The notes: generated from the sequence alone by a model not told the origin. A stretch of DNA of 64,000 nucleotides from Planctomycetota bacterium (GCA_022705425.1 JAKJEM010000001.1:104253-168252); one strand, 5' to 3'. Counted from the first letter of the stretch, positions 12,346 through 54,418 are shown. Program-made: numbers and translations.

Positions 12346-14715
<2,370 letters not shown>

Positions 14716-20952: not shown

Positions 20953-21149
20953 CCATCGGCTAATGGTGGCAAGGCTCCCGCGAGTGTCTTACCGCGCAGC
21001 TTACCGCCGGCACTGCCCGAAGACCTCTCCCAAGTGGTGAAGTCCTGGCCCAATCTGCCCGCATCCGTCCGCGCCGGGATCGTGGCGATGGTGAAGGCGA
21101 TCCGGCCATGACATCCATGCGGACGATGCGCCACGGGTCGGTGCGTCCG

Positions 21150-32453: not shown

Positions 32454-32834
32454 ATGCCGGTGGCCAGTCGAGCACAGGTAGCTGCGTTCCTTCACGTCTT
32501 CAAGAGCTGCTTCAGGCTCGATCGCTTCTCTGTCAAAGACAGACAGAAGAACCGGCAAGCCCTCATTGCCCTGGCGATGGACCCTGCGGAGCGCCGGGAT
32601 GCGCTTCTCGGTCTCCAGCCGGACGATTACGTTGCCGGGCCCAAGCCGGACGATACGGACGACACCAGGGAAGTCTGGGAGTTCGGCAGGACCATCGGGA
32701 CGACAGAGGTTTACATCAAAGTGCGCGTGGTCCAGGATCCGAAGAAGAAGAATGTCCACCACGCGGTGGTGTGGTCATTCCATCCGGCCGAGTTCCGAAT
32801 GAAGTATCCGCTGAGAGGAGGGAGTGGGTCATGA
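32454..32834 (+). CDS. mqsR: MqsR-family toxin (type II TA ribonuclease toxin, RelE/MqsR fold)
   Basis: The C-terminus ...EVYIKVRVVQDPKKKNVHHAVVWSFHPAE matches the MqsR C-terminal signature (QVYLKITVIHD...LIVSFKEK). The toxin-first gene order matches mqsRA. GC is low. Confidence 0.55.
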   Translation: MPVASRAQVAAFLHVFKSCFRLDRFSVKDRQKNRQALIALAMDPAERRDALLGLQPDDYVAGPKPDDTDDTREVWEFGRTIGTTEVYIKVRVVQDPKKKNVHHAVVWSFHPAEFRMKYPLRGGSGS

Positions 32835-36800: not shown

Positions 36801-39238
36801 GCTGCAAGACCTGTCAGCGCATCACGACGCGCCCGGCTCCCCGGTCAGCCTGCACGCGTCATCACTGCCCCGGCAGTACCGTGACGCTGGAGCCGGACAA
36901 GGACAACTATGACGTGTGGCTTATGCGGCGGCCATTCGTCATGGTCAGCGCCGAGGAACACACGGCCCAGGTACCCGGCGAGGTTCGCCTCAAGGTCGAG
37001 CAGGATTTCAAGTCGCGCAAGGGCCGGACCAACTGCCTTGTGGCCACCCCGACGCTGGAAATGGGCGTCAACATCGGCGACCTGGACATGGTCCTCATGC
37101 GCAACGTTCCGCCGCGCGCGAGCAATTACTGGCAGCGTGCCGGACGCGCGGGCCGCGAAGAGCACATGGCGGTCGTCGTGACGTACTGCCGGCGCTCGCC
37201 GCATGACCGCTATTTCTTTGAAGACCCGCTGCGCCTGCTGGGTGGGGCCATTGAAGCGCCGGTGTTCAACCTCCGCAACCCCCTCATGGTCGGCAAGCAC
37301 ATCCGATCAGCCATCTTGTCGGAACTGCTCCTGCGAGCGCGTGGCAACGGCCCCGATGCGCGGAAGATTCATGACGTCCTTGTCCCGTGCTTCCCGACCT
37401 TCATTCGCGACTACCTCCTCGACGAGCAGAACCGCTTCCGCGAGACGCCCCCCGGCGTGGCATCGCTTCAGCATCTCCTCGACACCATGAAAGACCCCCT
37501 GACAGAGCGGCTGCTTCAACTCTTCGCTCAACATTGGCCCGAAGATGCCCGGGAACTCACCACGCGCGCAGCCATTGTTCAGATCGTGGAGGAGACGGCG
37601 GCCGCGCTCGACGGTGTTCTGGGTCGCCTGCATCGCCGTCTGGCGTGGGCGCTGAAGACTCAAGCCGATATCCACCGCAAGAAGGAGGCGGGCCTGATTG
37701 ACCGCGAGGAAGATCAGTTGTTGCGTCGTTGCGACGACTACATCAATCGGATCATGCGCCGCGACAGTTCCACATACACCCTGACGGTGCTGGGCGTGGA
37801 GGGCTTCCTGCCCGGCTACGGCGTCTATGAAGGCGGCGTGGTGGCTTCGGCGAGGGCCGGATTTGCCCGCCATCCAGGCTCACGCTCCTTTGAACTATCG
37901 CGAAGCAACGTCGTGGCTCTTCGCGAGTTCGTGCCGGGCAATCGCCTCTACGCCAATCGGGGCACCTTCTACGTATCGCGCTTCCACCTGGCTGCCGATG
38001 AATCGAGCAAACTGCGCACCTTGCGCGTTGACCCCGAGAAGGGCACGGTCAGTGACCACACCGGCAACGCCGCTTACGGCCAGTCCGCCGCACAGATCAT
38101 TGATGCGTTGCCGCTGACGGACCTGGACCTGACGCACGAGAGCCGGATCAGCGAAGACGAGAGCCTGCGTTTTTCCATGCCCGTGGAGATCGTCGGTCGC
38201 CTGCGCCGCCGATGCCGGGGCGGAAAGGCCTTCAAGATTGGCCAGGTGGAGGCCCACCACCTCAAAGGGCAGGGCATCGAGTTGGTCAACCTGGGCGAAA
38301 CCGGACGCGTCAAACGCAAGGAACTTGGCCACTGGATCTGCTCGATCTGCGGGGCTGCCAAGACGCCCTATGCTGTTCCGGCTGAAATCAATCACTTCAT
38401 CCAAGGGCACAAGGACCGTTGCGGTCGTGAACCCGTCCGCCTGGCTCTGACCGCCCAAGCCGACGTTGACATGATCCAGTTCCATGCCATGGAGAACCCG
38501 GCCAAGGGAATCAACATCGGCGAAGCGCTACGCACCGCCGCAGCGCGCGTCTTGGACATGGGGCCGGAGGACCTCCAGTTGCTCGTGGTGCAGAAGCCCG
38601 ATGACACACTCGACCTCCTGCTCTACGACCCCATGCCCGGTGGTTCGGGCCTGCTCGACCAGATGCTTGGGCGCTGGCCGGAGATTATCACTGCGGCCAG
38701 GAACCTTCTGGCCAACTGCCCACTGGCTTGCGAGGCCGCGTGCTATTGCTGCCTGAAGACTTTCCGCAACCAATCGCACCACGAAGCGCTTGACCGCCAC
38801 AAGGCTTTGGAGTATCTCCAAGCGCTTGACCACACGCCGCAGAGCTATCGTGACATCGGCCCGCAGTTTGAGGAAGAATCGGCCGGTCAAGGGACGCCGT
38901 CGAATACGGCGGAGGCCCGCCTGGAGCGCATTCTGCTCGACCATCACTTCCCCGTGGGGAAGGCCCGCCGGCGGATTACGGCGAGCGCGGGGCTCTCTAC
39001 GGTGCCTGACTGGCTCCACGAGCCGTCCAAGACCGCTGTGTACCTCGACGGCATGAGTCGCAACCTGCACGGCGATCCGAAGACGGCCCAGCGGGATCAA
39101 CTGATCCGGCAGATGCTGGAACTGGACGGGTACAAAGTTGTAGTTGTTCAGTCACGTGACTTGGATGATCCGGAGGCACTGCGACGACACCTGAAGAACA
39201 TCGCTCAGGCTTTGGGCCGAGGGGATCTGATCAGTTGA
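33866..39238 (+). CDS. 1790-aa DEAD/DEAH-box helicase with Cys-rich (DUF1998-like) region and C-terminal DUF559/Vsr-like endonuclease domain; DISARM DrmA/DrmB-like fusion (or DruE-like)
   Basis: GTG start. Walker A VATGTGSGKTEAF. DEAH box (LVFDEAHTYEG). HELICc ...LVATPTLEMGVNIGDLDMVLMRNVPPRASNYWQRAGRAGR. Multiple CxxC clusters (CRQCGALH..., CPSCGTL, CSICGAAK, CPLACEAACYCC). C-terminal ...SKTAVYLDGMSRNLHGDPKTAQRDQLIRQMLELDGYKVVVV resembles DUF559 (AVxxDGxxH...D..RD..L...G). Confidence 0.65.
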   Translation: MPINPVHFAHNVCDEFLRYIFSAFPLTDPDLAAQARKMFERPSSLGIPLVQGPYVSLSRAFAQGDPVADLAARGMLHPVMPGLIGYPTLWVHQQRVFEAVRRGEHVLVATGTGSGKTEAFLHPIVDDLLRQRDQGVTAGLSAVLVYPMNALANDQLERLRDMLAGTGVTFGQWVGTTPDKERDVAIEQFPSSSRQAYLAERKKRKDAALGENRAARPIAPLEECRSEEDIRARKPRILITNYRQLEILTTRWPDVSLFAGAPLKYLVFDEAHTYEGAVGAEVACLIRRVRALAGKTPDEVTCIGTSATLADPDKAKGDHEAAAKRFASRFFGVDEDKVTLVGESYVAREWPGGRIKTAPPLGDGMERVNRLLKAMSDPVDLPALKAVIEELTGQMIDLGEDWARSLFQHLLANEYVYQTTQVLSEPKLLSDAAWQTSQRLAPDRLERGARADGELLAYLLLGAAARQEGEALLRPKVHFFIRGLDEMTVALDGDPDALQVRLFMSLAEARGACPNRRDDAFLPVLTCRNCGQHFFERHFQNLELSAGSQGDLKDFACGNATEGGDGQSNAVWPTAPEGGGTRLVMTNRLLEEADGQGGAKTARWPRGHVCRQCGALHRNPGDACSADGCGHKAPLLPLLAFGKELSSCPSCGTLSFRIGGRVIEPARRVQAVTVADVHILAQAMINAAPRDHKKLIIFADSRQDAAFQAGWMQDHARRIRLRHMMHDAITNAPGPVKLDEIVDRLMGVFRKDRSLIDALLPELTGEEAQAVFGHNVWVPVHRALRYMVLREFTTGVRRTDCLEAMGLAQVSYERLTPENPDVQEWASVVGITPADAVNAISLILDIWRRNRILFVEKEPIFSQFHARDNEYIQVGLLALRDFRPEGLLLKAGEQDKYARGVKAPRGQSAVQALLKKWTPDSGKVDLDAAIGLLWELLTERIKLLSKVVLRSQKDTPLGGDVWQVNADTVRVAKSNQRARCKTCQRITTRPAPRSACTRHHCPGSTVTLEPDKDNYDVWLMRRPFVMVSAEEHTAQVPGEVRLKVEQDFKSRKGRTNCLVATPTLEMGVNIGDLDMVLMRNVPPRASNYWQRAGRAGREEHMAVVVTYCRRSPHDRYFFEDPLRLLGGAIEAPVFNLRNPLMVGKHIRSAILSELLLRARGNGPDARKIHDVLVPCFPTFIRDYLLDEQNRFRETPPGVASLQHLLDTMKDPLTERLLQLFAQHWPEDARELTTRAAIVQIVEETAAALDGVLGRLHRRLAWALKTQADIHRKKEAGLIDREEDQLLRRCDDYINRIMRRDSSTYTLTVLGVEGFLPGYGVYEGGVVASARAGFARHPGSRSFELSRSNVVALREFVPGNRLYANRGTFYVSRFHLAADESSKLRTLRVDPEKGTVSDHTGNAAYGQSAAQIIDALPLTDLDLTHESRISEDESLRFSMPVEIVGRLRRRCRGGKAFKIGQVEAHHLKGQGIELVNLGETGRVKRKELGHWICSICGAAKTPYAVPAEINHFIQGHKDRCGREPVRLALTAQADVDMIQFHAMENPAKGINIGEALRTAAARVLDMGPEDLQLLVVQKPDDTLDLLLYDPMPGGSGLLDQMLGRWPEIITAARNLLANCPLACEAACYCCLKTFRNQSHHEALDRHKALEYLQALDHTPQSYRDIGPQFEEESAGQGTPSNTAEARLERILLDHHFPVGKARRRITASAGLSTVPDWLHEPSKTAVYLDGMSRNLHGDPKTAQRDQLIRQMLELDGYKVVVVQSRDLDDPEALRRHLKNIAQALGRGDLIS

Positions 39239-39436: not shown

Positions 39437-39634
39437 TCAAAGTGGCTGTATTTCAACTGTCCCTACGTGGCTGCATTTGCCCGTCCGCCGACACCACGGG
39501 CAGAACTGGTTCGTCGTGGTCCCGTGCTGCCGGCAGGCCTCCGACACCGGGCTCTCCCCCCGCAATCCCTCCAGGACGATGGACACCTTCTCCGATGCCG
39601 TGAAGGTCCTCCGTCCGCTCCTTTCCAGACGCAT
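39437..39634 (-). pseudogene. remnant of an IS3-family transposase orfA (HTH part), truncated
   Basis: MRLERSGRRTFTASEKVSIVLEGLRGESPVSEACRQHGTTTNQFCPWCRR matches the IS3/IS911 OrfA N-terminus (RRxFTxEfKxxIVLEglrGE.SvxEvcRxhGIsxxxFyxWrrq). It then diverges into a stop. No orfB and no inverted repeats are seen. Confidence 0.4.
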
Positions 39635-39831
39635 CGCGCGGGGGTATATACTGGCCGGGTGCCGCACTCTTGTTCCGCCACCTGCCGCACTCTTACGCCG
39701 GCGTTTGCAGCCAGAGGCAAGCGCACCGCTCTTCACCCCCTCATCTGTCCCACTTCGCGGAGAAGCTACACATATGGCTCCTTGCCGACGCAGAATCCGG
39801 CGGGCACATGGCGCGTGGAAACGCGGCACAG

Positions 39832-41124
39832 TCATGTTCCCGGTCGAAGCTCCTGGATTTCGTCGTCCATCACCCTCTTCACAAGAGCCATGGAAGCCGC
39901 CGCGAATGCGTTGAAGGACTGCTCATCGTTCAGGGCCTGCCGCGCGTCCGCATTCCCCGAGACGGTCATGTGCGCGAGGGCATTCCGGGCGTCGCGGAGC
40001 CGCTCCCACGCCCGACGGTCGGCCGGGTTCAGCTTGTCCAGTTGATCCTTCACCCGGTCGCGCATGCGTTCATTGTACGCGGTCCAATCCCTGCACCCGC
40101 AGTGAACCATCGCGATATGGACCATCACCAGTTCACATAACAGCAGGATGGGTCGCAGCCGCTCCCCGCGCGCAACGAGGTCCTCCACCTTCTTGAACAG
40201 CCGGCGCTCAAGCCCTCCCGGCGTCTGGCTCCAGGCAAACGCGTCGCGGAGTTCCTCTTTGACGGCATTGCGCAATGGGTCCGGGGATGTCTCGGACTCA
40301 AGGTTCTTTCGGGCCTGGCCGGCCGGCCCCTGCGCTTTGGCCATCTGGTTGATCTCTTCAAGAAACGATGCTCTTTCGATTTCCGGCTGCGCCCTGGGGT
40401 ACAGGGCGGCGAGTGACCGGTAATCCCCCGTGAGCCTGTAAGCGGCGCAGGCCGCCGACGTCTGCGCGTAGTGACCGGACAACGACAGATCAACCACGGG
40501 GACCAGGCCATCACCCGTGCGCATGTCGAACGCGCCGTAGTAGATACCCGTCACGCGGGCGTTCCGCAGCCATTGCAGGGGCATCAGCATGAAGGAGGCC
40601 AGCACCGGCAGATGGCGGTAGGAGTGGGTGATGTCGAGGATGATCTCGTCATCTTGCCCTGTGTGCCGCATGAGAACGTTCATCAGTTCATACTGCTCTT
40701 CACGCTCGCGGCAGTCGCCGATGAGTTCCAGCCGGAGGGCCTTGACGCCAAGAACATCGGCCAGGCCGGCCGGCGCTGCGGAAAGGTCTCCCGGGGAGAC
40801 TGTTCCACCCAGGACTCGCGGTTTGATTCGATCAAACCACGGGGCGACTTCGGAGAAGGCCTCATCGCTGGGGTGTCTGTCCCAGAAAGCATCGAGCAGG
40901 GCATCCCAGCCTGAACCGGCCGTGCCGAGAATGAGCCATTTGTCGGGGTGCAGGCCCTTACGGCCAAGGTACTGCCACAAGGCCCAGCCGAACAACGTCG
41001 TCCGGATGCGCTCATCCCGATCGAAGCGGTATGTCGCAGCGCTGTAGCCCGACCGCCCGGCGTCGCCGGCTGCGCCGCGGTCCTGTGCGCGCCCTATGAA
41101 ACTCACAACTACCTTCTTTCCCAC
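39832..41124 (-). CDS. CRISPR-associated CARF-domain protein with a C-terminal HEPN-like Rx4H motif (Csx1/Csm6-like, TM1812-like family)
   Basis: GTG start at 41124. N-terminus KKVVVSFIGRAQD...SAATYRFD is typical of CARF Cas accessory proteins. The C-terminus has RDARNALAHM (R-x4-H). It lies immediately beyond the distal end of the array. Confidence 0.55.
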   Translation of the reverse strand: MGKKVVVSFIGRAQDRGAAGDAGRSGYSAATYRFDRDERIRTTLFGWALWQYLGRKGLHPDKWLILGTAGSGWDALLDAFWDRHPSDEAFSEVAPWFDRIKPRVLGGTVSPGDLSAAPAGLADVLGVKALRLELIGDCREREEQYELMNVLMRHTGQDDEIILDITHSYRHLPVLASFMLMPLQWLRNARVTGIYYGAFDMRTGDGLVPVVDLSLSGHYAQTSAACAAYRLTGDYRSLAALYPRAQPEIERASFLEEINQMAKAQGPAGQARKNLESETSPDPLRNAVKEELRDAFAWSQTPGGLERRLFKKVEDLVARGERLRPILLLCELVMVHIAMVHCGCRDWTAYNERMRDRVKDQLDKLNPADRRAWERLRDARNALAHMTVSGNADARQALNDEQSFNAFAAASMALVKRVMDDEIQELRPGT

Positions 41125-41127
41125 GTC

Positions 41128-43510
41128 AGTGCTCCAATCCTTTTTTCGTCAGGTCAATGCTTCCTACTCCATAACCGCGTCAAAAAAAGCGAACTGAGCA
41201 CGGATGATGTGGGTTTGAGCTTCCAAGAGAGCCATGGGAGAGCTCTTGGTTGTGTTCATTTCTTGCCCCCTGTTAGAAGGATGAGGAGAAGTACAAGACA
41301 GCCCACTGCCACGTATAGTCCAATCACTTCCCACTCCCTTCTTTTCTTGAGAGGGCTTCGTTGGAGCCTCGACCGCATCAGTCTCAATCCCTTTTTCGTC
41401 AGGTCAATGCTTCCTAGATGCAAGTGTGTTGCGGGTGGCCTAAGGTTCACTATGGAGGACGGTTTCAATCCCTTTTTCGTCAGGTCAATGCTTCCTACGG
41501 ATGGCGGTGGACGGGGTTCCGGGCCTCACCTTCTCGAGTTTCAATCCCTTTTTCGTCAGGTCAATGCTTCCTACGGTCGTGGTGTTCCCGGCCCACATGG
41601 GGTTTGATTGCCAGGTTTCAATCCCTTTTTCGTCAGGTCAATGCTTCCTACGATTGAGATTCGACGTCGGTATGGCCCCAAGGTTTATCGGGTTTCAATC
41701 CCTTTTTCGTCAGGTCAATGCTTCCTACTGCTGAACTGGCCAAGGCCGCGACGCAAGGTGTCAAGTTTCAATCCCTTTTTCGTCAGGTCAATGCTTCCTA
41801 CTGATGACGTGCCGGTGTGTGAGCGTGACACTGTGGGCGCGTTTCAATCCCTTTTTCGTCAGGTCAATGCTTCCTACCCACGCGGGCGACTTGCAGGCGA
41901 TACCTGGTGGAGCGATGAAGTGTTTCAATCCCTTTTTCGTCAGGTCAATGCTTCCTACTCAAGCGGAACAGACAGAGCGCGAGAAAGCGGCTGTCAAGGC
42001 GTTTCAATCCCTTTTTCGTCAGGTCAATGCTTCCTACGCGAGATTGAAGCCAGTGACTTCCGCTCCTCAGTCGGTTCCGAGTTTCAATCCCTTTTTCGTC
42101 AGGTCAATGCTTCCTACTTGCCATACATTTTCTTCGACGCGCGCACCGGCTCCTTCTCGTTTCAATCCCTTTTTCGTCAGGTCAATGCTTCCTACGCGTC
42201 GAGATTGAGGCGACTAACGCCGACATTCGACGTGGTTTCAATCCCTTTTTCGTCAGGTCAATGCTTCCTACGTCCGGGAAGTGTGCATCATGCGTATTGT
42301 GGCATGGAAGTTTCAATCCCTTTTTCGTCAGGTCAATGCTTCCTACTGAAGATTATGCGCGATGTGCTTACAATCAAGGCTAAGTTTCAATCCCTTTTTC
42401 GTCAGGTCAATGCTTCCTACGCGGTGACGAGAGGTTACGAGTACAAGGAAGTCGAGGGTTTCAATCCCTTTTTCGTCAGGTCAATGCTTCCTACGTATCT
42501 CCGCTACCGTGCGGAGGACGGTGATACCGAGGCGTTTCAATCCCTTTTTCGTCAGGTCAATGCTTCCTACGGGGGTGTCCATGCCCCCGCTGACGGTCAT
42601 GTACGACGGGTTTCAATCCCTTTTTCGTCAGGTCAATGCTTCCTACGCACCTGTCTGTGCGGACAGGAAGCCCACACGATGTTCCACAAGGTTTCAATCC
42701 CTTTTTCGTCAGGTCAATGCTTCCTACAAGGCTATTTCGTATGGAGGATCGCACAGGACGGCATGAAAGTTTCAATCCCTTTTTCGTCAGGTCAATGCTT
42801 CCTACACAGACAGACGCAGTCGAGGAACCACAGGCGTCTTTTATAGTTTCAATCCCTTTTTCGTCAGGTCAATGCTTCCTACCAGGAAGAACCTTATCGA
42901 AAAAATCAAGGGCTTCTCTTGTTTCAATCCCTTTTTCGTCAGGTCAATGCTTCCTACCAAGAAAATCTCAGAGGCTACTGGGTTCCCCGTTGTCAATGTT
43001 TCAATCCCTTTTTCGTCAGGTCAATGCTTCCTACGGGGGATGGCGCGATAGTTACGAACGGTGGAGCAGCGGCACGTTTCAATCCCTTTTTCGTCAGGTC
43101 AATGCTTCCTACCAGGTTATGACTGCGCCGCCGTTGATGCAGTCAATGAAGAGTTTCAATCCCTTTTTCGTCAGGTCAATGCTTCCTACGGGGTGGTACG
43201 GAGGCCCCGACATCCCAGCCCTGTTCCCCACACCGTTTCAATCCCTTTTTCGTCAGGTCAATGCTTCCTACGGAGCAACCGGGAGTCCCCCTGGCGAGTC
43301 TGCGCGACGGCGCGTTTCAATCCCTTTTTCGTCAGGTCAATGCTTCCTACCGCAGGGATCACAGTAGGAGGGTGAGACGATGGCATATCGTTTCAATCCC
43401 TTTTTCGTCAGGTCAATGCTTCCTACGACTCCGACGTGGGGAGATCGCATGGCTCCGATGGGAGGACGTTGACGTTTCAATCCCTTTTTCGTCAGGTCAA
43501 TGCTTCCTAC
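41128..43510 (-). CRISPR. CRISPR array, about 30 units of a 37-bp repeat GTTTCAATCCCTTTTTCGTCAGGTCAATGCTTCCTAC (plus strand); transcribed from the minus strand
   Basis: There are 28 canonical repeats from 41463 to 43510 with unique 38-45-nt spacers, plus two degenerate distal repeats (41128-41166, 41380-41416). The minus-strand reading ends in ...GGGATTGAAAC, a typical 8-nt 5'-handle ATTGAAAC. cas1-cas2 and the leader are at the high-coordinate end. Confidence 0.95.
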
Positions 43511-43706
43511 TGCACCTCCTTTTCGGTCAATGGCCGCGAGGGCAAAATGCGGCACAGGCCATAATGTCGCCTGGATAGCGTCGCCCTGTGGCCTTCGATC
43601 ACTTGGCGCTGCCGGGCAGCGTCATCCCAACTCCTTGTGCAGCGGTTGGTTGCAGCAGAACCATAATGCGCCGGGTATTGGCGATGCTGGGACATTATGG
43701 ATTCAC
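43511..43706 (-). promoter_or_regulatory. putative CRISPR leader (between cas2 and the first, newest repeat)
   Basis: Non-coding 196 nt between the cas2 stop (43707) and the repeat at 43474-43510. Orientation fits the minus-strand cas operon and the degenerate repeats at the opposite end. Confidence 0.4.
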
Positions 43707-43985
43707 TCAGACCACGATGGCCCGCCGCGTATCCAACCCGGCGTTCTGACCCAGACGAAGGGACTTCCCGACGCAGGTTGCGCAAAGCGGGTAGATGACA
43801 ATGTTGTCTTCATCGGTGTTCATCTCTCGTCTCAGTCGTTCCACCAGCAGGGATAAGTGCCGTTGGTCCAGTTCCGCCTCAAAGACGCTGCGCTGAACAC
43901 GGTCGCCGTAATCGTCCAACGTCCGCGCGACACGCTCGCGCCGTCGGTCGTCCACGACATCATAGGATATGACGTATCGCATCAC
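43707..43985 (-). CDS. cas2: CRISPR-associated endoribonuclease Cas2
   Basis: MMRYVISYDVVDDRRRERVARTLDDYGDRVQRSVFEAELD... is a canonical Cas2. ATGA overlap with cas1. Confidence 0.85.
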   Translation of the reverse strand: MMRYVISYDVVDDRRRERVARTLDDYGDRVQRSVFEAELDQRHLSLLVERLRREMNTDEDNIVIYPLCATCVGKSLRLGQNAGLDTRRAIVV

Positions 43986-44980
43986 GGCATGAACCGATGA
44001 GGCACGTACACCGCGTTCTCCCCGATGGCCTTGGCCAGACGCCCGGCCTGCCGCCGGTAGATTTCCCGGTAGGCGGGACGGTCGCCCGTGGGCGGATCGA
44101 GCGCCGGGCGCGCCAGCCAGTCCTCATAGAGGGTGAAGTAGGTCCTGAGGGCGGCGCGCTTGAGTCGCACGCCGCCTTTCTCCGCCGGCTCGAAATCTTC
44201 CGGCTTCAGAACGCCCTTGTTGTTCATGTAGAGGGTAAGCCGGTCCACCACTGGGTAACGAAACTCTTCCAGCAGGTCCAGCGCCAGTGACGGCCGGCCA
44301 TAGTCCACATCGTGGAGGAACCCGAGATACGGATCGAAGCCGGCGGCGTCGAGGAGACTCTGCAATTCGTTCGCCACCAGCGTGTAGCCCAATGACAAGA
44401 GCGCGTTGACGGGGTCGGTCGGGGGTCTTCGGGCGCGGCCTGGGAACTTCAGCGGCCCCATGCACATCGCGGCGAAGGCGTCGAAGTACGTCTTTGAGGC
44501 GTAACCTTCGATCCCCCGAAGTGTCGCGATGTCGTCCGCCTGCTGCGCTCGCGGAATAGCCGCTTCGAGTTCATCGGCCATGCGTTCCACCGGCGCATCG
44601 CGGTGGTTTGCGCGAAATCTTCGAATGCCTGCCAGACAGTTCAGCAGCTTGCCGGCGACTATGGCGCGCGCAAAGCCCAGCCGCGCCTCCGGCTCCCGGG
44701 CCTTCTCAAATTGCGCCACTCGCAGGAGAATGTTCCTGGCTTTCGCCGGCGTAAGCTGTCCCTTCAGGCGGCCGTCCTGTGTCAGAAATGCCGCCTCGAT
44801 GCCTTCCGCCAGGAGCAGTTCCATTGCCTGTGTCGTGATTTGTGCAATGCCAAAGATGAGAACGGCATCCAGTCTGTGGCACTCCACTTCGGCCAATGGA
44901 ACGCCGTCTTTGGTCACAACAAGGGTTTGCCCTCGTTTCTGGAGCATCGCGCCCTGTTCAGTGACGTAGAGAACGGGCAT
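43982..44980 (-). CDS. cas1: CRISPR-associated integrase Cas1
   Basis: MPVLYVTEQGAMLQKRGQTLVV...LDAVLIFG... is a typical Cas1 (332 aa). Confidence 0.85.
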   Translation of the reverse strand: MPVLYVTEQGAMLQKRGQTLVVTKDGVPLAEVECHRLDAVLIFGIAQITTQAMELLLAEGIEAAFLTQDGRLKGQLTPAKARNILLRVAQFEKAREPEARLGFARAIVAGKLLNCLAGIRRFRANHRDAPVERMADELEAAIPRAQQADDIATLRGIEGYASKTYFDAFAAMCMGPLKFPGRARRPPTDPVNALLSLGYTLVANELQSLLDAAGFDPYLGFLHDVDYGRPSLALDLLEEFRYPVVDRLTLYMNNKGVLKPEDFEPAEKGGVRLKRAALRTYFTLYEDWLARPALDPPTGDRPAYREIYRRQAGRLAKAIGENAVYVPHRFMP

Positions 44981-45949
44981 TCAGCGTCCTCCCGGGACGT
45001 TCGGCGCACCGCTGGCCGCGGGGCCGTCGTCAGGGAAACAAATCGGCAGCGCAAGCGCAAAGGCCATCTGCAAGGCTTCCGGCCGTGCGGGGGCCAGGCC
45101 CGGTACAGCGCGGCCATACCACGGTCGTATCGGCGATGATGCCCTGAAGCAGGACCCGGGCTTGAGAAGCGTGAGAGGCCGCTTGAAGGGATTGTCCGCT
45201 GCGGCAAACTCCTCGCCCAGCTTGCCGTACTTGACCCGAAACGCGTAGTCGCCGTCGGTCGGATCCCCGGACGCGGGGGTGAAATGTGAAAGCGACACGA
45301 ACCCGTTCGCTCCGGGCTGTTCCGCGAGGTCGCTTGATGGCGTCATTCCTTCGTAGTGAAATGCGCCCTTGCCCGTTGATTTCTTCTTTCCGAAACCCGA
45401 TGCCGCCATCGAAGCCCACAACCGGGCGAACCGGTCTTTCCACTCGGGCTCGACGCGGGCATAGAGGGTGAGGATGCCAGCGGTGTCGGCGAGATGGCTC
45501 TCCTCTTCCTCACGCAGTCCCCCCTGTTCGACGGAGGTGTTGGATCGGCGGTCCAAGGTGACATGGAGGCGCGTGACCTGAACCAGCGGCTCCGCCTGCG
45601 CCGGCGGCAACGGAGGCAATCGCCCGGAACAAATGGCCTTGAAGACGCCCTCCGGGAGCCAGGCACGCCGCTTCCATTCACGCGCCAGGGCAAGACGCTT
45701 CTCGGGATCGGGTTCAGCCCTGCCAGCGAGCCGGTAAAGACAGAATGGAGCGGGCAGAAGGCGGCCCGGGAAGGCGTCGCTCAGGACAAAGGGAGGATCG
45801 CCGGCGCGGCATCGTTCCAGGAACCCTTGCAGTGCCGTTTCGCCTTCGATCCGGCCAAGTTCCCAGCAAAGTGATCCGTACAGCGTATCGGACTGCCACG
45901 GTGTCAGGAATGAACCCATGGGCCTGAGAGTGATGCGGTAAAGATTCAC
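44981..45949 (-). CDS. type III RAMP, Csm4/Cmr3-like (Cas5 group)
   Basis: N-terminus MNLYRITLRPMGSFLTPWQSDTLYGSLCW and the Gly-rich loop SGFGKKKSTGKGAF are typical of Csm4-type RAMPs. Sits between csm3 and cas1. Confidence 0.5.
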   Translation of the reverse strand: MNLYRITLRPMGSFLTPWQSDTLYGSLCWELGRIEGETALQGFLERCRAGDPPFVLSDAFPGRLLPAPFCLYRLAGRAEPDPEKRLALAREWKRRAWLPEGVFKAICSGRLPPLPPAQAEPLVQVTRLHVTLDRRSNTSVEQGGLREEEESHLADTAGILTLYARVEPEWKDRFARLWASMAASGFGKKKSTGKGAFHYEGMTPSSDLAEQPGANGFVSLSHFTPASGDPTDGDYAFRVKYGKLGEEFAAADNPFKRPLTLLKPGSCFRASSPIRPWYGRAVPGLAPARPEALQMAFALALPICFPDDGPAASGAPNVPGGR

Positions 45950-45972
45950 CGTTGTCTCCTTCGCCCGGAGCG

Positions 45973-46638
45973 TCAGGCCGGAAGCGCCCGGATAGCGTCT
46001 GACAGAGGCTTGCCATCGGGGGCGAGAAAGCGCACTTTGCCATACCCGCGCGTGCCGGAGCCGCCCAGGTACTCCTTTTCCAGAAGTTCCATGGCCTCGG
46101 CAAGGCGGGCCAGGTGGGCCTTCACGTCATCGCCCTCGAAAACGCGCAGAACCACCTCGAAACTGAAACGGCTGACCTCGGCGGGAACCCGTTCCTGTTG
46201 CCTCAGAGTTCCCCCGGAGGTCGCGCCCTTGTTGCGGTCCATGGCGATCTCGGTCTTGACCTCGGCAAATGCGCCCGGCAACGCCTCAGTCAGTTTTCGG
46301 GCGCTCTCCTCGTCGAGGGCGCAGTCGCGGAAGATAAGCCGGGTGCATTCCCGGGTATTCCGGACCGCGCCGCAGCCGAACATCTTGCAGATGAAGCAAT
46401 CGCCGCAGGTGCAGGGCTTTCCACTCCTCTGGGAATCAGGCGAGTATTTCTGCTCCAGCAGCGAACGCATCTTCCCCTTGACCGACGACCCGGGCAGATA
46501 CGGCATGCGCGAGACGGGATGGCGAATGATCGGATTATCCGTCTCACCGATGCCGACCGTGTCCTTGGTTCCACCGATACGCATCCCGGTGTCGCAATGC
46601 AGCAGGCCGTTGACGACAACGTGCTTCACAAGCTTCAT
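45973..46638 (-). CDS. csm3: type III Cas7-family backbone subunit Csm3
   Basis: ATG at 46638 is preceded by TAGGAGG. ...IIRHPVSRMPYLPGSSVKGKMRSLLE... is the Csm3 signature. The Zn-knuckle is CTCGDCFICKMFGC. Confidence 0.8.
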   Translation of the reverse strand: MKLVKHVVVNGLLHCDTGMRIGGTKDTVGIGETDNPIIRHPVSRMPYLPGSSVKGKMRSLLEQKYSPDSQRSGKPCTCGDCFICKMFGCGAVRNTRECTRLIFRDCALDEESARKLTEALPGAFAEVKTEIAMDRNKGATSGGTLRQQERVPAEVSRFSFEVVLRVFEGDDVKAHLARLAEAMELLEKEYLGGSGTRGYGKVRFLAPDGKPLSDAIRALPA

Positions 46639-46649
46639 GGGCAAGCCTC

Positions 46650-47240
46650 CTATTTTTCCTTGAGGTAAGCGACAATGCTTGTCAGGTATTCGACGAAACC
46701 ACGGAACTCCTTCACGTCCTTGCAGGCCACGTCCACGTGCTTTGCAATGAACGCGGCAAAGGTGGGCGACTTCATCACCCCCCGTTTCACCTGGTACTCC
46801 ACCTGCCGGGCGAACTTCCAAACGGCTTCCTGAACGATTCCGAAGTCGAGATCCGGCTCCCCCTTCAGCCGCTGCTCAACCGATTTCAGCATGAAGAAGA
46901 GTTGCCGCAACTGGCTTGTCGTCAGGCCTTCCCCCATGCAGAGATCGGTCATCTTTTGCGCCGCCTCCAGGTAGATCGCCCGGCGCAGATGGCCATTTTC
47001 GTAAAAGGAGGCGAACACGCAATCTGGTGGGACGCTGGCTGGCTTGGGCGATAATTCGGCGCGTCCGCCGGCATGGGCAGGCGGCCGGCCAGCGCTCTGG
47101 CCGGCAGGCCGCTGCCCCGGCGACCGTTGAGATTGTTCCCTGCACCCCGGTGTGCAGAATTGATGATGTGCTTCCTTCGCGTCGAACGGTTTTCCGCATT
47201 GACGACAGCTTTTTTGCACGGCCTTCCCTCCTATCTCTGT
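46650..47240 (-). CDS. type III small subunit Csm2 (Cas11) with an N-terminal CxxC...C..C zinc-ribbon-like extension
   Basis: GTG at 47240 is preceded by GGAGGG. The N-terminus is KSCRQCGKPFDAKEAHHQFCTPGC. The C-terminal ~120 aa are alpha-helical (GLTTSQLRQLFFMLKSVEQRL...FARQVEYQVKRG...FVEYLTSIVAYLKEK), typical of Csm2. Confidence 0.5.
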   Translation of the reverse strand, partial: TEIGGKAVQKSCRQCGKPFDAKEAHHQFCTPGCREQSQRSPGQRPAGQSAGRPPAHAGGRAELSPKPASVPPDCVFASFYENGHLRRAIYLEAAQKMTDLCMGEGLTTSQLRQLFFMLKSVEQRLKGEPDLDFGIVQEAVWKFARQVEYQVKRGVMKSPTFAAFIAKHVDVACKDVKEFRGFVEYLTSIVAYLKEK

Positions 47241-49687
47241 GTGTTGAGGGCGTATTCGAGGACAAACCGAAGCCCGTGGAAGGCCGGCTCCTCGACATTC
47301 CTGAAACGGGCAACCCATTGCCGCGCGGCTGACGCCTCCGGGCTCGTGTCCGGCCAGTTGCGGGTGATGTCGTAGGCGAGAAGCGGAATGAACCGGAGAT
47401 TCGCCGTCTCGCCAGTCCGCCGGAATCGAGCCCACATTTCCGCATATGTCAGGAGCCGCCGCGCGGCGGAAACCGTAACAACCCCCGCACTCAGCCAATG
47501 GGCAAGCTTGTCGGCTTCCGCGACCGCCGCCGGGAACCGCTGCCACTTCAGAGTAGTTCCGAAAACATGAATCTGATCGCGGCCCTCAGCCGCGCCGAAT
47601 GCCCGTTCCTCCTTGGCCCGCTCCAAACACCGTTCGACCATCGGCGCGGCGCTGGCCACCGGCGTGCCGGACCCGGCGAGCGCATATCCGGATGAAAAGG
47701 TCAGCCGACCGCACGTAAAGCGCTCGAAGGCTCTGCGAAGTTCGTCGGCCAACTCCACCATCTGACTCCACGGCCCGACGAGAAGGAAGTCGTCGCCGCC
47801 GGAGAAGACGGTGTACGTGTTCGGAAATTCAGTTTCGAGGAGATGGTTCATCCACCCGCCGAAGAACAAATCGAGCATCCGGCTGAGCGTGGCGATTCTC
47901 GAAACGGACCGCATTGGCTCCGGAAAGCCGAAGGCAAACGTTCTGCCGAGATTGTCCACGTCACCCTTGAGCCATGCCAGTGCATTGCGACCTGTTGCGA
48001 GACGGGAGAGGCAAGCGAACGTTTTCGCACCGCCCGGAGCAGGACGCTCGTCGTCGGGAATGACGCAGTTGTCGCGTCCCTGACACTGGCTGCATCCTTC
48101 CGGTCCTGGCCTCGGGATGGTATTCGCGAAGAACCGGTGCCAGACCGGCGCTTGCCGTGCCTGGAAGGGGGCGTCGAAATCATTGATGGCCAGCGCCCAA
48201 GAGGCATCGCCGGGCGGGTAGCCGGACTCCAATACCCCGAATGAGTTCTCGACCGCTTTGAATTCTCCGCGACGTTCATCGTCAAAGATCACGGCCAGCC
48301 GTGCCGTTGTGAGCCTGCGTCCCAGCCGAACGTCCTGATCGCACAATGTGCACGTTCGGCGGGCGCGTTCGTCCTCGTGGGAAGCCGGGAGCTTTCCGCA
48401 GTACTGGCAAGGGCGATAGGTTGCGTTTCCCGGAAGACGCCCCGGCATGAACGCCGTATCGGACCATTGTTCCGCCGGCTGTAGAACGGCGGCAAGGGGC
48501 CTGCGCTTGGCCTGCTGCATCCGCATCTCCAGCCGATCCAGTAGGCGTCCGAAGTTTCCGGCCATGAACTCACTGCCTGACGCGACCACGTGCGCGACAT
48601 TGATATGGACCTGACCGTGCAGGGTGTCGTGAAGCCAACGATCGAGCGAGGCGCGTACTCGGGCAATTCGCTCGGACGCATCGTTGAGGTTGGGCAGAAG
48701 CAGTGTGAACCGTCCGCCGGAACACATGAGCATGTTGACCGGAGTAACGCTGAACGCGCGGAGAAGCCGCATGGCGGCGATTTCGGCGATTAGCCCCAGA
48801 TAGAAGGACCTGGCGCGGAGACGCTTGGCCGTGCCACCCACGCCGACTTCAGCGATGTCAAACAGGTAATCCTGTATGCCGGAAAGATACCCTGCTACCA
48901 CCAGGAAATACGGCGCGGACCGGTCCCGGGCCGCTGTTTCCGTAAGGCACTTGCGCTCCATGCAGGCGGAGTGCAGACACGCCGCCAGCGCCGCCGTCGA
49001 CTTCAGATGGTCATAGAGAGACACATCCGGCAAGTCTATCGTCGATGCCGGAAGACACCACGTGAACCGGTACAGGGCCGTCGTCATCGCAGCCACGAGG
49101 ACGTCGGGAGTCTCCGCCTGAAGGGATTCCGTGACCTTTATGAACCCGGCCAGCAGTTCGGCGTATGACGGCGTGAGCTTCTGCCCGGATTCCTCCTGGG
49201 GGACGGGGAACGTGGCCGCAAGGTCCTCGCCGAGAGGGGCCATCGGGTGGGCGAAACTGCGGCGGCCCCTGCCACCTTCGGCGAGGCTCTCGAACACAGA
49301 CAGCAGTGGCGTAGAGCGCAATCCCCCCGCAGGCACGGGGGTGTCCCCGTCGCTCCCGGGGCGGTCCTGCCCGGCAGACAGGCAGTCCGCCTGTTGGACA
49401 ATGACCTCTTCCACCGAGGACGGCCTGTGGTGGGCCCTTGCGAGCGACGCGACGGTTGCGGCATCCACCCCTGACGGCCAGCGAACCGCAACCATGTCAA
49501 AGAAGGCCTGCGTCCAAAGGGCATGTTCGTGCGTGAAGCGTCCGGACCTCGGGTCCGTGGGGCATACGTATTGCCGCATTCGTTCCGTCCGATCCGGAAG
49601 CGCCTGTCCGGGCGGAACGGCTCGCTGCATGAACTTGCCAACATCATGAAGCAGACCGCCCAGTAGAATCTCGTGTGCGTTAGCCAT
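47231..49687 (-). CDS. cas10: Cas10/Csm1 (HD nuclease plus Palm/cyclase domains)
   Basis: ATG at 49687 is preceded by AGGAGAGG. N-terminal HD motif LLGGLLHDVGKF. GGDD cyclase motif VFSGGDDFLLVGPW. Cys-rich treble-clef CQYCGK...CTLCD. Confidence 0.85.
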   Translation of the reverse strand: MANAHEILLGGLLHDVGKFMQRAVPPGQALPDRTERMRQYVCPTDPRSGRFTHEHALWTQAFFDMVAVRWPSGVDAATVASLARAHHRPSSVEEVIVQQADCLSAGQDRPGSDGDTPVPAGGLRSTPLLSVFESLAEGGRGRRSFAHPMAPLGEDLAATFPVPQEESGQKLTPSYAELLAGFIKVTESLQAETPDVLVAAMTTALYRFTWCLPASTIDLPDVSLYDHLKSTAALAACLHSACMERKCLTETAARDRSAPYFLVVAGYLSGIQDYLFDIAEVGVGGTAKRLRARSFYLGLIAEIAAMRLLRAFSVTPVNMLMCSGGRFTLLLPNLNDASERIARVRASLDRWLHDTLHGQVHINVAHVVASGSEFMAGNFGRLLDRLEMRMQQAKRRPLAAVLQPAEQWSDTAFMPGRLPGNATYRPCQYCGKLPASHEDERARRTCTLCDQDVRLGRRLTTARLAVIFDDERRGEFKAVENSFGVLESGYPPGDASWALAINDFDAPFQARQAPVWHRFFANTIPRPGPEGCSQCQGRDNCVIPDDERPAPGGAKTFACLSRLATGRNALAWLKGDVDNLGRTFAFGFPEPMRSVSRIATLSRMLDLFFGGWMNHLLETEFPNTYTVFSGGDDFLLVGPWSQMVELADELRRAFERFTCGRLTFSSGYALAGSGTPVASAAPMVERCLERAKEERAFGAAEGRDQIHVFGTTLKWQRFPAAVAEADKLAHWLSAGVVTVSAARRLLTYAEMWARFRRTGETANLRFIPLLAYDITRNWPDTSPEASAARQWVARFRNVEEPAFHGLRFVLEYALNTQR

Positions 49688-49737
49688 GTGCCTCTCCTGC
49701 CCAAACGACGGCATTCTACCACACGCTACGGACGGCA

Positions 49738-50691
49738 TTAGAGAATCCGGTATCGCCCAAAGCCGAAAGATGTCGCCTTCCCGACATGCACCCATTCACC
49801 CAAGCGCAGGTACGGGGTAAGGTCGCCCACGTCGCCAGCGTATTCGACCACACCGGCAACCCCACCCATGCGCATTCGTTGCTTCTGGCGCGTGGAGTAT
49901 CGCTCGAATTCTTCCCATCGAATCTCAGTGCGCTTTGTGCTAACTTGTTCCGCCTTGCGGATGAGTCCGCCGAAGTCAGCCTGCAACTCATGGCCACAGT
50001 GAAAAGACGAGAGCGCCGAAAGGCGGCGCAAGAGGTTCCGGACCAGGACGTGAAATGGCAGATCTGACACGTAGTGCCCCTCGGACTTCAGCCGGGCCGG
50101 CGTGTCGAGAACTACCGTGACCGTACCGTTTGTGCCAAGCGGCTTCGACATGTCCGGAACAAAGCGCTGTGCCGTCGCAAGGCGGTTGTGGGAGGAATCG
50201 AATAGTAGCGCTTCTGCGCCGGCCGGACTCTTGTCAACGACACGAATGAGCGCAAACTTGGCGCGTCGTGCACCGATTCCCGCCTTCCCAAGTTCCTGAA
50301 AAGCGAGAACAAAATAGGGCAAATAGTCCGTACCTCGGCCTATGAGTACAAGAGAGAATTCGATATCCGCCCCGACTGCCAGCCGGGCCGGCTGACCCAA
50401 GGGCGGCTCGATAACGAAAGGGTGCGGTACATTGGGATACAGCCGCATCATGGCTGCCCCGTCTGGGAGGGGCGATTCGAAAACGTAGCGGTAGGGACAA
50501 GACGCACGCACCAGGCATTCGGCGCAGACCACGGCCCGGCGAGTGCATACGCACCCTTTGAAGGCGTAGCCGAAAGCCCCACGGAGCGTTGCGCCCAGGA
50601 AGGGTGGAAGTACAGCAGGCTCCAGAAGGCGGAGGGTCAGCCTAACGGCCGAGATCGAGAAGTAGTCCAATCGTCCCCCGGTGCCGCTCAC
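49738..50691 (-). CDS. cas6: Cas6 crRNA endoribonuclease
   Basis: The C-terminal glycine-rich loop GKATSFGFGRYRI is the Cas6 hallmark. The start is uncertain; the ORF is open to 50895, and GTG 50691 is chosen. Confidence 0.7.
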   Translation of the reverse strand: MSGTGGRLDYFSISAVRLTLRLLEPAVLPPFLGATLRGAFGYAFKGCVCTRRAVVCAECLVRASCPYRYVFESPLPDGAAMMRLYPNVPHPFVIEPPLGQPARLAVGADIEFSLVLIGRGTDYLPYFVLAFQELGKAGIGARRAKFALIRVVDKSPAGAEALLFDSSHNRLATAQRFVPDMSKPLGTNGTVTVVLDTPARLKSEGHYVSDLPFHVLVRNLLRRLSALSSFHCGHELQADFGGLIRKAEQVSTKRTEIRWEEFERYSTRQKQRMRMGGVAGVVEYAGDVGDLTPYLRLGEWVHVGKATSFGFGRYRIL

Positions 50692-51471
50692 GGTCTGCCG
50701 CCTTCGGGCAAAGCTATGCGTCACGCTAAGGCTTTTCCACTCTCCGCAAGGAAGATAACAGAGGCGAAGCAGCACAGTCAAGAAGTTCACAACCCCCTTT
50801 CGTATGCAGACACTTGGAAGGAGACCGGGGGGGGGCAGCAGGGCATGAGGCAGGGCGGGGACCGACTTGACCACGGTTTGAGATTGTGCTTGCACCGTCC
50901 GTCACGGTAGTCCCACTTGCCTGCGCGCAAGGCGAATCCGTGGCTCGATCAGAACCGAGAATGACACCTGAGCATTCTCGGGGCAGTAGAACAACGCCAA
51001 TGTGTGTGTGGGTAAGTGCAAGCCACCGTGACACTTACAACACCCTTCATCCGCGATTTACCGGCAAAAGCTAGCCAAGCGACCCACCGGGACTCTATAA
51101 CTAAGACACCCAGGCACGGCGCAACGGTCGCGCCGCATGAGAGGGAAACCCTCATGGATGGACGTGGATTGTGGAAACCCTCATGGATGGTCGGGTGAAC
51201 AGACAGGCGAAAGGCAGGCCCTCAGCTTCGGGCTTGCCACCGGAGAAGCGCCGATGCCGGGCGACGTGCAAGGCGACAGGGAAGGGGCGCAGTCGTTGGC
51301 TACCCCAACCGGCAAAGTTCGGGGACAGCTACGCATGGCAACAGGCCGACTTGGACCGCCTCAGGAGTCTGCCCGTCCGAAGAGGACGCGGGCCGAAGGA
51401 CCGCGAAAAGGGGCGAGGCCATGCCTGACGCGCGTACACCCTTGCCGCAAGTCTCCAGCGACACGGCGCTG

Positions 51472-51672
51472 ATGACCGTGAACGATGTCGCTCGCGTCTT
51501 GGGATGCTCTGTGTCCCACATCTGGCGTTGCCATTCCGCCAACTTGATTCCTGCCCCGGTTCACCTGCTGCGGTTGACCCGGTGGCGGAAATCAGAGATA
51601 GACGATTGGGTGTTGGCCGGTTGCCCGCCTCGTGGAAAATGGTCGTGGGCGCGGGATGGGAGGCGTCCGTGA
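51472..51672 (+). CDS. AlpA-family (prophage CP4-57 regulator-like) HTH transcriptional regulator
   Basis: MTVNDVARVLGCSVSHIWRC...IPAPVHLLRLTRWRKSEIDDWV matches the AlpA pattern (...Rxs.iyR....FP.Pi.lg.r.vaWresdIdaWi). Located near the integrase. Confidence 0.55.
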   Translation: MTVNDVARVLGCSVSHIWRCHSANLIPAPVHLLRLTRWRKSEIDDWVLAGCPPRGKWSWARDGRRP

Positions 51673-51902
51673 TGCACTTCCTCTTGCAGCGCGTGTGGCA
51701 TGGCCGACTGCTGTCCGACCCCGACTATCTTGTGCGGCCGCCCGAGGCACGCAGCGTCCATGCGGACCGGCGTTGGTTCGCAGGAAGGAAAGGTGCGGAC
51801 AGCGACACGGGCATGATCCCTGCGGAACTCGTAGGGTGGCACGGTCGCTGCCCGCGTCGCGTCGCGTCAAGACTGCTCTCGATCTGCCGCGAGACAAACA
51901 GA

Positions 51903-52345
51903 TGATTGACGTGAGGTCGGAGGACGGGAAGGCCACAATCCCGCGATGGTCGGAAGCGCAGAAGACCCGCGCCGACGCTATGCGGCGCGCATATCGGGAG
52001 CGGCAGAAGAACGGCAACAGTGACGTATCTGCGGCGCGACATGTTGCGGGGAAAGTGTACGCGGGAGTCCTGACGCGCCGGGCCGACGGTGGAAGCACGA
52101 ACGCCGACACGGCGGCGGGGCGGGTGGTCTGGGCGGACTTCGACGGGACGGACCCGCGCGAAGCCTTGCGGCGAACAACGGCTGGCCTTCCGGCAGGGGA
52201 TCGGACACCCCGAGTTCGTCGAGTTGGGTGTCAGTGCGCCGAAGCGGAAGGCACAGGCGGACGATTCCGGCCACAGGACGCGGGGATGACGATGGGCTTC
52301 TGCGCGTCCGATAATGTCGCTTATGTAGAAGTGAGCGGAATATAG
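51903..52345 (+). CDS. hypothetical small protein (uncertain)
   Basis: ATG ORF MIDVRSEDGKATIPRWSEAQ... has moderately GC-rich third-codon positions and lies between the alpA-like and xis-like genes. It overlaps antisense ORFs. Low support. Confidence 0.25.
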
Positions 52346-52439
52346 CGGAATATAACGGGGCCCGGCCTTGACAAGGCCGTCGCGATAAGCTATGCTTATC
52401 GCGACGGCGCAGGGAAGGCCAGAGCAGAAAGGGAAGAAC

Positions 52440-52868
52440 ATGGCAAGACGACGGAAGACGCTGCGCAAGGGGGGGCGCGCTGTGGTGCTGCCGGGGCAGG
52501 CCGCCACGGGGGCGTTGTTCCAAGAGACCGCTCCGACGCAACCGGCATTGCCGCCGGGCGTCATAGACTTGGGGGGGGAGCGGTTCTACACGGCGCAAGG
52601 GCTGGCGCATGTCCTGGGCTTGCACGAGAAGACAATCCGGCGCTACCATGCCGACGGCCTGTTGCACGGGAACCGGATCGGGACCGGCGGCGGGCGCTTG
52701 GTGATCTTCTCGCAAGCGGCGGTGCGGGCCTTCCTGACCGGCATTCCCGACACGAGCGCCGGGGGGCGCGCCACGACCCCCGGAACGGGTGAAAGCACCA
52801 TTCCAAGGCGCGCGGACACCGGGACCGGCCCGGTGGCCGTCGGCGGCGCGGTACCGCCCACAAAGTGA
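52440..52868 (+). CDS. excisionase-like / MerR-type HTH DNA-binding protein
   Basis: AGGGAAG RBS. ...FYTAQGLAHVLGLHEKTIRRYHADGLLHGNRIGTGGGRLVIFSQAAVRAFL is typical of the Xis/HTH_17 family. Directly upstream of the integrase. Confidence 0.5.
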   Translation: MARRRKTLRKGGRAVVLPGQAATGALFQETAPTQPALPPGVIDLGGERFYTAQGLAHVLGLHEKTIRRYHADGLLHGNRIGTGGGRLVIFSQAAVRAFLTGIPDTSAGGRATTPGTGESTIPRRADTGTGPVAVGGAVPPTK

Positions 52869-54407: not shown

Positions 54408-54418
54408 GCTAAGGGCCC
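54343..54418 (-). tRNA. tRNA-Met (anticodon CAT; elongator-type, or possibly tRNA-Ile2/lysidine)
   Basis: The minus-strand sequence GGGCCCTTAGCTCAGTTGGTCAGAGCGGGGGACTCATAATCCCTTGGTCGCTGGTTCGAATCCAGCAGGGCCCACC folds as a cloverleaf. It has a 7-bp acceptor stem, a D-arm GCTC/GAGC, the anticodon loop CTCATAA, and a T-arm GCTGG-TTCGAAT-CCAGC. CCA is not fully encoded. Confidence 0.85.

Follow-up and report, generated by a model that had tools for sequence, protein, structure and literature searches.

Studied effectors of CRISPR-Cas systems of type III-A contain Csm5, a subunit that caps both filaments of the complex, binds the CRISPR RNA (crRNA) at its 3′ end, tunes target affinity, and recruits the trimming nucleases PNPase and RNase R (PMC10289348). 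A locus in a stretch of 64,000 nucleotides (nt) from a Planctomycetota bacterium (GCA_022705425.1, JAKJEM010000001.1:104253-168252; hereafter the window) is of this kind but has no recognizable csm5. An earlier note on this DNA left open whether the locus is a reduced variant or has lost a gene, and this is the question addressed here. Comparison with related loci decides for the reduced variant, since 13 independent loci share this module, without csm5 and with an extended Csm2. Taking the observed gene set and the chemistry ascribed to it together, it is quite probable that the locus is an intact III-A system with a four-gene effector (cas10, csm2, csm3, csm4), one Cas7, and no csm5, that this composition is a conserved property of its clade, and that it works by Csm chemistry with cyclic oligoadenylate (cOA) signalling. 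A csm5-less III-A system with an elaborated Cas11 is conserved, yet apparently undescribed, and no description of natural csm5-less III-A loci was found in the searchable literature.

Composition and subtype of the locus

Searches of the window with TIGR/NCBIfam, Pfam, and PADLOC Cas models give, on the minus strand, the order cas6, cas10, csm2, csm3, csm4, cas1, cas2, leader, array, and CARF-HEPN gene (Table 1). This is the operon proposed in the earlier note, and the hidden Markov models (HMMs) name every gene of it at or close to the place proposed. The gaps between successive genes from cas6 to cas2 are 50, 11, 11, 23, 0, and −4 nt. The catalytic motifs are all kept, namely HD and GGDD in Cas10, D34 in Csm3, and RNxxxH in the CARF-HEPN protein.

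In Cas10, residues 14-15 form the HD motif and residues 630-633 the GGDD, both intact as previously read, and its closest solved chains are all III-A Csm1. Its start is most likely ATG 49687, as in the NCBI gene call of the same length. Csm3 has the catalytic Asp34 and a cysteine cluster (C76/C78/C81/C84/C89). Among solved structures it is best matched by the Csm3 chain of PDB 4QTS (162 bits), where both the Asp (GTDNP motif) and the cysteine cluster align. This structure is the M. jannaschii Csm3-Csm4 complex, and that system includes Csm5. The product of 44981-45949, which had been read as a Cas5-group repeat-associated mysterious protein (RAMP), is confirmed as Csm4/Cas5 by TIGR01903 and PDLC01494, and on the other PADLOC Csm4 profiles it reaches only 33-42 bits.

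Cas6 is matched by PF10040 (70 bits) and by the PADLOC Cas6 profile PDLC01477 (340 bits over residues 79-384 of the longest open reading frame, ORF). Because this profile match begins at residue 79 and homologues align from residues 79-81 of the long ORF, the start is probably TTG 50670. A sigma-70-like site at 50781-50752 lies within the long ORF. The idea that Cas6 hides a Csm5 domain was considered and rejected, as the protein begins with an ordinary Cas6 N-domain and the additional 75 codons probably represent non-coding DNA upstream of the gene.

The locus is of type III-A rather than III-D-like, because Cas10, Csm2, and the gene order are Csm-type, and csx10, csx19, and further Cas7 paralogues are absent. 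The III-A half of the former label III-A/III-D-like thus stands, and the III-D half does not. All parts are typed as III-A with existing Cas profiles.

Csm5 models (TIGR01899 and those of PADLOC) match nothing in the locus or its flanks except for a weak cross-hit to Csm3 (E-value 0.004). The absence of a recognizable Csm5 is borne out, and no Csm5 was found by HMM in the ORFs assigned otherwise. A Csm3 HMM from twelve clade members was also run at maximum sensitivity on all ORFs of at least 90 residues, both of the window and of each locus fetched. Exactly one Cas7 per locus results for the window and for the 13 related loci, and the other weak RAMP-like matches are Csm4 only. The window has no second Cas7-like ORF, and neither has any related locus in the stretch of up to 10 kb that was covered to each side of the gene looked up. 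Since csm4 directly abuts cas1, there is no space for a csm5 remnant. The ORFs at 50.9-52.9 kb and 39.25-39.9 kb match no cas family, and give only a weak excisionase-like helix-turn-helix (HTH) and the transposase HTH of an insertion sequence (IS).

The 13 independent loci (L001, L002, L005, L006, L008, L010, L012, L013, L014, L017, L018, L019/L020, and L021) were reached through homologues of Csm2 and Csm4, and all hold cas10-csm2-csm3-csm4. Protein identity to the window ranges from about 30% to 72%, and the G+C content measured in them from 50% to 66%. L006 belongs to Ignavibacteriales and L013 to Gemmataceae. The module is directly followed by cas1-cas2, an array, or a cOA effector, and the effectors comprise CARF proteins (of the TIGR02710, APE2256, and TIGR02619 kinds), Csm6_6H, SAVED, and TIR-SAVED. 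Where checked, the flanks hold housekeeping genes, cOA effectors, or a type I locus; several modules are bordered by unrelated housekeeping genes, such as PBP2, RodA, Lgt, and RtcB in L008. A Csm4 search gives 196 homologue clusters, many of them named Csm4 by JGI, and csm5 is absent in all eight further contexts inspected. Scans with Csm2-alignment patterns return only 2 loci in the genome collection and 5 in metagenomes. The Csm4 search and the exhaustive Csm2 profile search described below indicate that the family is nevertheless not rare.

The repeat on the transcribed (minus) strand is GTAGGAAGCATTGACCTGACGAAAAAGGGATTGAAAC. It ends in ATTGAAAC, in line with the canonical 5′ handle reported before, and its 3′ core AAGGGATTGRRAC is also found in arrays of related loci. 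It is essentially unstructured, with a minimum free energy of −3 kcal/mol. From homology, the intact motifs, and knowledge of Csm systems, Cas6 would cut this repeat 8 nt from its 3′ end and yield crRNAs with a ATTGAAAC 5′ tag. The tag would be held by Csm4 and Cas10, Csm3 copies would polymerize along the guide, and Csm2 copies would form the second filament. Upon pairing with a transcript, Asp34 of Csm3 would cut the RNA in 6-nt steps, and the HD DNase and GGDD cyclase of Cas10 would be activated. The cOA so made would activate the CARF-HEPN RNase, whose gene lies beyond the array.

Table 1. Features of the CRISPR-Cas locus, in window coordinates
Feature	Coordinates	Strand	Description
cas6	49738..50670	-	~310 aa; probable start TTG 50670; longest ORF reaches 50895
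cas10/csm1	47231..49687	-	818 aa; TIGR02578 577 bits; Pfam Csm1_B, Cas10 palm2, HD
csm2 (Cas11)	46650..47219	-	189 aa; GTG 47219, 7 nt after GGAGG, 11 nt after cas10 stop
csm3 (only Cas7)	45973..46638	-	221 aa; ATG 46638 after a GGAGG; TIGR02582 200 bits
csm4 (Cas5)	44981..45949	-	322 aa; TIGR01903 94 bits (cutoff 55); PADLOC PDLC01494 'Csm4; III-A, III-D' 228 bits, full length
cas1	43982..44980	-	PF01867 304 bits; TIGR00287 250 bits; abuts csm4 stop codon
cas2	43707..43985	-	PF09827 80 bits; overlaps cas1 by 4 nt
Leader	43511..43706	-	196 nt between cas2 and first repeat; assigned by position
CRISPR array	41381..43510	-	27 perfect 37-nt repeats and 1 degenerate terminal repeat; 27 unique spacers of 36-47 nt
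Orphan degenerate repeat	41131..41167	-	3 mismatches; 213 nt past array; 6 nt upstream of CARF start codon
Csx1/Csm6-family CARF-HEPN effector (TIGR02221/Csx2 type)	39832..41124	-	430 aa; TIGR02221 102 bits, with DxTHG; PADLOC CARF2--CARF_HEPN 214 bits, full length

The N-terminal module of Csm2

The C-terminal half of the window Csm2 is matched by PF03750 at 42 bits, and TIGR01870 gives 33.6 bits (cutoff 30.6). Residues 1-32 (window 47124-47219) make up a Zn ribbon, residues ~33-60 a disordered linker, and the rest a helical domain. In the AlphaFold2 model, a beta-hairpin/helix module has a predicted local distance difference test score (pLDDT) of 70-79, the linker is below 50, and the helical bundle is above 85. 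The predicted bundle matches the III-A Csm2 chains of complexes solved by cryo-electron microscopy. The N-terminal CxxC...CxxC module described earlier is indeed a four-cysteine module, but its second pair is CxxxC, the full motif being C5-x2-C8-x13-C22-x3-C26. Residues C5, C8, G9, C22, and C26 are invariant in all ten orthologues, which share 38-92% identity, and the 30-45-residue linker varies freely. The NCBI and JGI calls of csm2 comprise only 122 aa and are devoid of the Zn ribbon and linker; the full 189 aa occur in the Logan call alone. This truncation may explain why N-terminal modules of Csm2 went unremarked. Nothing relevant on a Zn-ribbon or cold-shock Csm2/Cas11 was found in the searchable literature.

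A Csm2 profile search over 1.84 billion representatives gives 491 clusters at an E-value of 1e-3 or lower, and the N-termini were classed in the best 148. Among these 148 of 491 relatives, about 80 have four cysteines, about 28 a basic Gly/Arg-rich tract, and about 19 a cold-shock domain, which scores 72 bits on Pfam CSD in P0171 and P0247. Rarer forms in the same set are a treble-clef zf_Tbcl finger (Pfam 55-57 bits), a few tandem Csm2 domains, and one Cas10-Zn-Csm2 fusion. None of the solved Csm2 structures has a Zn ribbon, cold-shock, treble-clef, or Gly/Arg-rich N-terminus.

The placement of the module is complementary. L013 and L017 have a Csm2 without module, and their Csm4 is extended instead. 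The conserved C-terminal extension of about 100-120 aa consists of a linker, a module of about 60 aa (VTVKVLERRDIGGKVQFFVQEEGKPRGVL...VYRNNxDPRNPQYRWDKP) with no Pfam match, and a basic Arg/Gly-rich tail. Gemmataceae-type relatives (L013 8597-9916; L017 9001-10257; P0044-P0120) comprise an HD-less Cas10 of 524 aa, a plain Csm2, and a Csm4 of 418-487 aa. In L018 there is no Zn ribbon and Csm4 is not long, and only a basic N-terminal tract is present.

Several relatives differ further in their arrangement. In L019 (225-6324) and L020 (268-6406), Csm2 has a cold-shock domain, a gene for a 747-aa SIR2_2-HEAT protein lies between csm2 and csm3, and TIR-SAVED follows csm4. In L021 (7001-9922; P0216), Cas10, Zn ribbon, and Csm2 are in one 973-aa ORF, which is followed by csm3 and csm4; this fusion is seen on one contig only and may be a sequencing frameshift. 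In L018 (5289-18963), the four-gene Csm module with an HD-less Cas10 and Csm6_6H lies within a type I locus (GSU0054, Cas3, GSU0053) behind a WYL regulator, and neither cas6 nor an array is present within the fetched stretch. The stand-alone proteins P0256, P0281, and P0283 consist of 4-7 tandem Zn ribbons of the CxxCGKxF...YCSxxC type, which is also that of the Csm2 module, and have no Csm2 domain, so the module exists independently of Csm2.

With the cap absent, a nucleic-acid-binding module tethered to Csm2 would hold the RNA at the open end of the complex or close to it, and no dedicated cap would be needed to set the length of the filament. That the module compensates for the absent Csm5 through such RNA contacts is put forward tentatively, as a possibility. 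It is favoured because the modules are typical single-stranded nucleic-acid binders and shift between Csm2 and Csm4 across sub-lineages. It is doubtful, but conceivable, that the loci represent a distinct four-subunit, cOA-signalling type III architecture, in which the cap is dispensed with and Cas11 takes over RNA-end or target capture by interchangeable modules, the module being carried by Csm4 in one sub-lineage.

The system may instead be csm5-less while its Zn ribbon recruits host nucleases for crRNA 3′ trimming, docks on a protein, or regulates. Small four-cysteine modules often mediate protein contacts, Csm5 itself recruits PNPase and RNase R (PMC10289348), and the tandem Zn-ribbon proteins occur on their own. 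The only fold match of the Zn module, the gyrase-binding Zn protein YacG, also points this way, with a non-significant E-value of 2.7. The alternative modules at the same position (cold-shock, Gly/Arg-rich) are, however, classic single-stranded nucleic-acid binders, and a role in recruitment, docking, or regulation is considered a serious but somewhat less likely alternative.

Alternatives to a csm5-less lineage

Csm5 could also be supplied in trans from another type III locus of the genome, as many genomes have several such loci and the window is only a 64-kb part of a contig about 325 kb long. Each of the 13 genomes would need such a supply independently, and no second Cas7-like ORF lies in the window or within the 10 kb searched around the looked-up genes. 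In addition, compensating additions to Csm2 and Csm4 in the clade suggest that it has adapted to the lack of a cap. Supply in trans is therefore rather improbable.

A canonical III-A system that recently lost csm5, and is now decaying or non-functional, has very little probability left and is largely refuted by the comparative data. In favour of such a loss, Csm5 is part of the structurally characterized canonical III-A complexes and is important for the maturation of crRNA and for target binding (PMC10289348). The CARF gene also has an IS fragment just downstream of it, and no protospacer was found. Against this, csm4 abuts cas1 with neither a gap nor a pseudogene remnant, the genes are intact with their catalytic motifs, there are 27 perfect repeats, and the gene set recurs in 13 loci with different flanks at 30-72% protein identity. 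Simple gene decay is rejected in view of the intact genes, the packed operon, and this recurrence.

Another reduced subtype (III-F, III-D, or III-A2) mistaken for III-A is just as hard to credit, even though a single Cas7 is reportedly a trait of III-F and the best Csm4 and Csm3 profiles are labelled 'III-A, III-D': Cas10 scores 577 bits against the III-A equivalog and has its GGDD retained, the locus includes a cOA effector, and csx10, csx19, and any additional Cas7 are lacking. A Csm2-type Cas11 is present as well, whereas III-A2 is defined by its lack of Cas11 (PMC12669027).

Some observations weigh against the csm5-less III-A reading or against parts of it. As for activity in vivo, the 27 spacers, searched as a concatenate, match none of 50,697 phage records and none of 72,556 plasmids. 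The three leader-proximal spacers have no exact 28-mer in IMG/VR, and no spacer self-targets occur in the window. The host genome was viewed over 64 kb only, and a csm5 elsewhere in this organism is possible. The Zn ribbon gives no significant Pfam domain and is modelled at the pLDDT of 70-79 mentioned above, and both its position in the complex and its binding of nucleic acid are predictions. The basic tract of L018 implies that an appended folded module is not obligatory. As for newness, the Csm4 of the clade has its own public Cas profile (PDLC01494, III-A/III-D), which indicates that curators have seen such loci.

Genomic setting and comparison with known systems

The leader followed by about 30 repeats, as first described, holds as an arrangement, and the count is refined to 28 contiguous repeats and 1 orphan. 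The leader side is indicated by the degenerate repeats at the opposite end of the array. A co-oriented array likewise stops shortly upstream of the CARF gene in L012 (18 nt; 11406-11425) and L006 (48 nt; 13991-14040), and cas6 comes after the CARF gene in L005, L006, L010, and L012. The effector, and cas6 in these four loci, may be expressed through read-through of the array and freed by Cas6 cleavage.

The CARF protein beyond the array, with its R-x4-H HEPN-like motif, is as it had been predicted. Its HEPN motif R380-N381-x3-H385 is invariant in an alignment of 14 sequences, as are the CARF residues G67, T68, S71, W73, D164, T166, H167, and R170. The AlphaFold2 model has a pLDDT of 90 and the fold of Csx1/Csm6. 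Foldseek places it closest to Marinitoga Csx1-Crn2 (8Y7G; E-value 2.6e-12), followed by S. islandicus Csx1 (6QZT) and T. thermophilus Csm6 (5FSH). The protein resembles Csx1/Csm6 RNases in its full-length fold match (TMq 0.61 at the E-value given), the DxTHG of its CARF domain, and the R-N-x3-H of its HEPN domain. In contrast, it is no more than 11-15% identical to solved proteins, and its family is TIGR02221/Csx2. A phmmer search of the protein against the PDB gave no match; the likeness emerged through profile, AlphaFold2, and Foldseek.

The G+C content of the window is 66%. At third codon positions it is about 0.88 in host genes versus 0.65-0.77 at 39.8-50.9 kb, which fits horizontally acquired DNA. 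The locus lies within a defence island of about 33 kb (20905-54418) between a tRNA gene (20905-20978, minus strand) and a tRNA-Met gene (54343-54418, minus strand). A tyrosine integrase gene (52890-54407) overlaps the end of tRNA-Met, and a weak excisionase-like HTH ORF is found at 52392-52868. The island also contains a DISARM-like DrmD (23405-26704; 680 bits), a DrmMI/type IIG methylase-nuclease (27088-32364; 970 bits), a MqsA-HTH/SocA-Panacea antitoxin-like gene (32771-33853), and a 1790-aa DruE-like (Druantia-like) helicase with a DUF1998/MZB domain (33866-39238). The ORF at 39437-39835 begins on the CARF stop codon and has an IS3/IS66-type transposase HTH (PF01527) in residues 74-117 only. 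It is probably an IS remnant that marks a rearrangement boundary. From cas6 to the excisionase-like ORF there are about 1.5 kb (50900-52390) that contain several overlapping ORFs of up to 279 aa with no Pfam, NCBIfam, or PADLOC match, and no Rfam hit.

A widespread natural lineage without Csm5 makes cap-less assembly testable, both for the setting of crRNA length and for the capture of target RNA. It also offers a smaller Csm effector for RNA-targeting tools, with four proteins and a Csm3 and Csm2 of ordinary size. The lineage draws attention to the N-terminal appendages of Cas11, truncated by gene callers, as an overlooked functional layer, and in annotation such loci should not be flagged as incomplete III-A. 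If the four-subunit reading is true, this effector would be the smallest of the multi-subunit Csm kind to retain all three activities, and would show a new way to set complex length and target affinity.

Canonical III-A Csm systems (S. epidermidis, S. thermophilus, T. onnurineus, L. lactis, and E. italicus; PDB) share with the window locus the HD and GGDD of Cas10, Csm2, the Asp of Csm3, Csm4, and the order cas10-csm2-csm3-csm4. Cas6, a repeat end of ATTGAAAC, and a CARF-HEPN cOA effector are also common to both. The window locus differs in having no Csm5 cap. Type III-F is said to comprise a single Cas7, Cas5, Cas11, and a Cas10 with inactive cyclase, and to have no cOA effectors. The single Cas7 is thus common to both, whereas the window has an intact GGDD, a linked CARF-HEPN gene, and matches to Csm (III-A) profiles. 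Type III-D reportedly has a Csx10-type Cas5, csx19, and several Cas7 paralogues. The window, in contrast, has one Cas7, a Csm4-type Cas5, and no other RAMP ORFs. In III-B, chain H of PDB 9ARW was named 'CSD domain-containing protein Cmr6' by its depositors. This is a possible precedent for a cold-shock domain at the cap end, and serves only as a lead, as it comes from another subtype and subunit; nothing relevant on a CSD-Cmr6 was found in the searchable literature. The III-A2 systems are a reduced III-A lineage that has no identifiable Cas11 and keeps cOA signalling (Makarova et al. 2025, PMC12669027). They are similar to the clade of the window in the loss of one effector subunit with cOA signalling kept, but the window clade does without Csm5, and keeps and elaborates Cas11.

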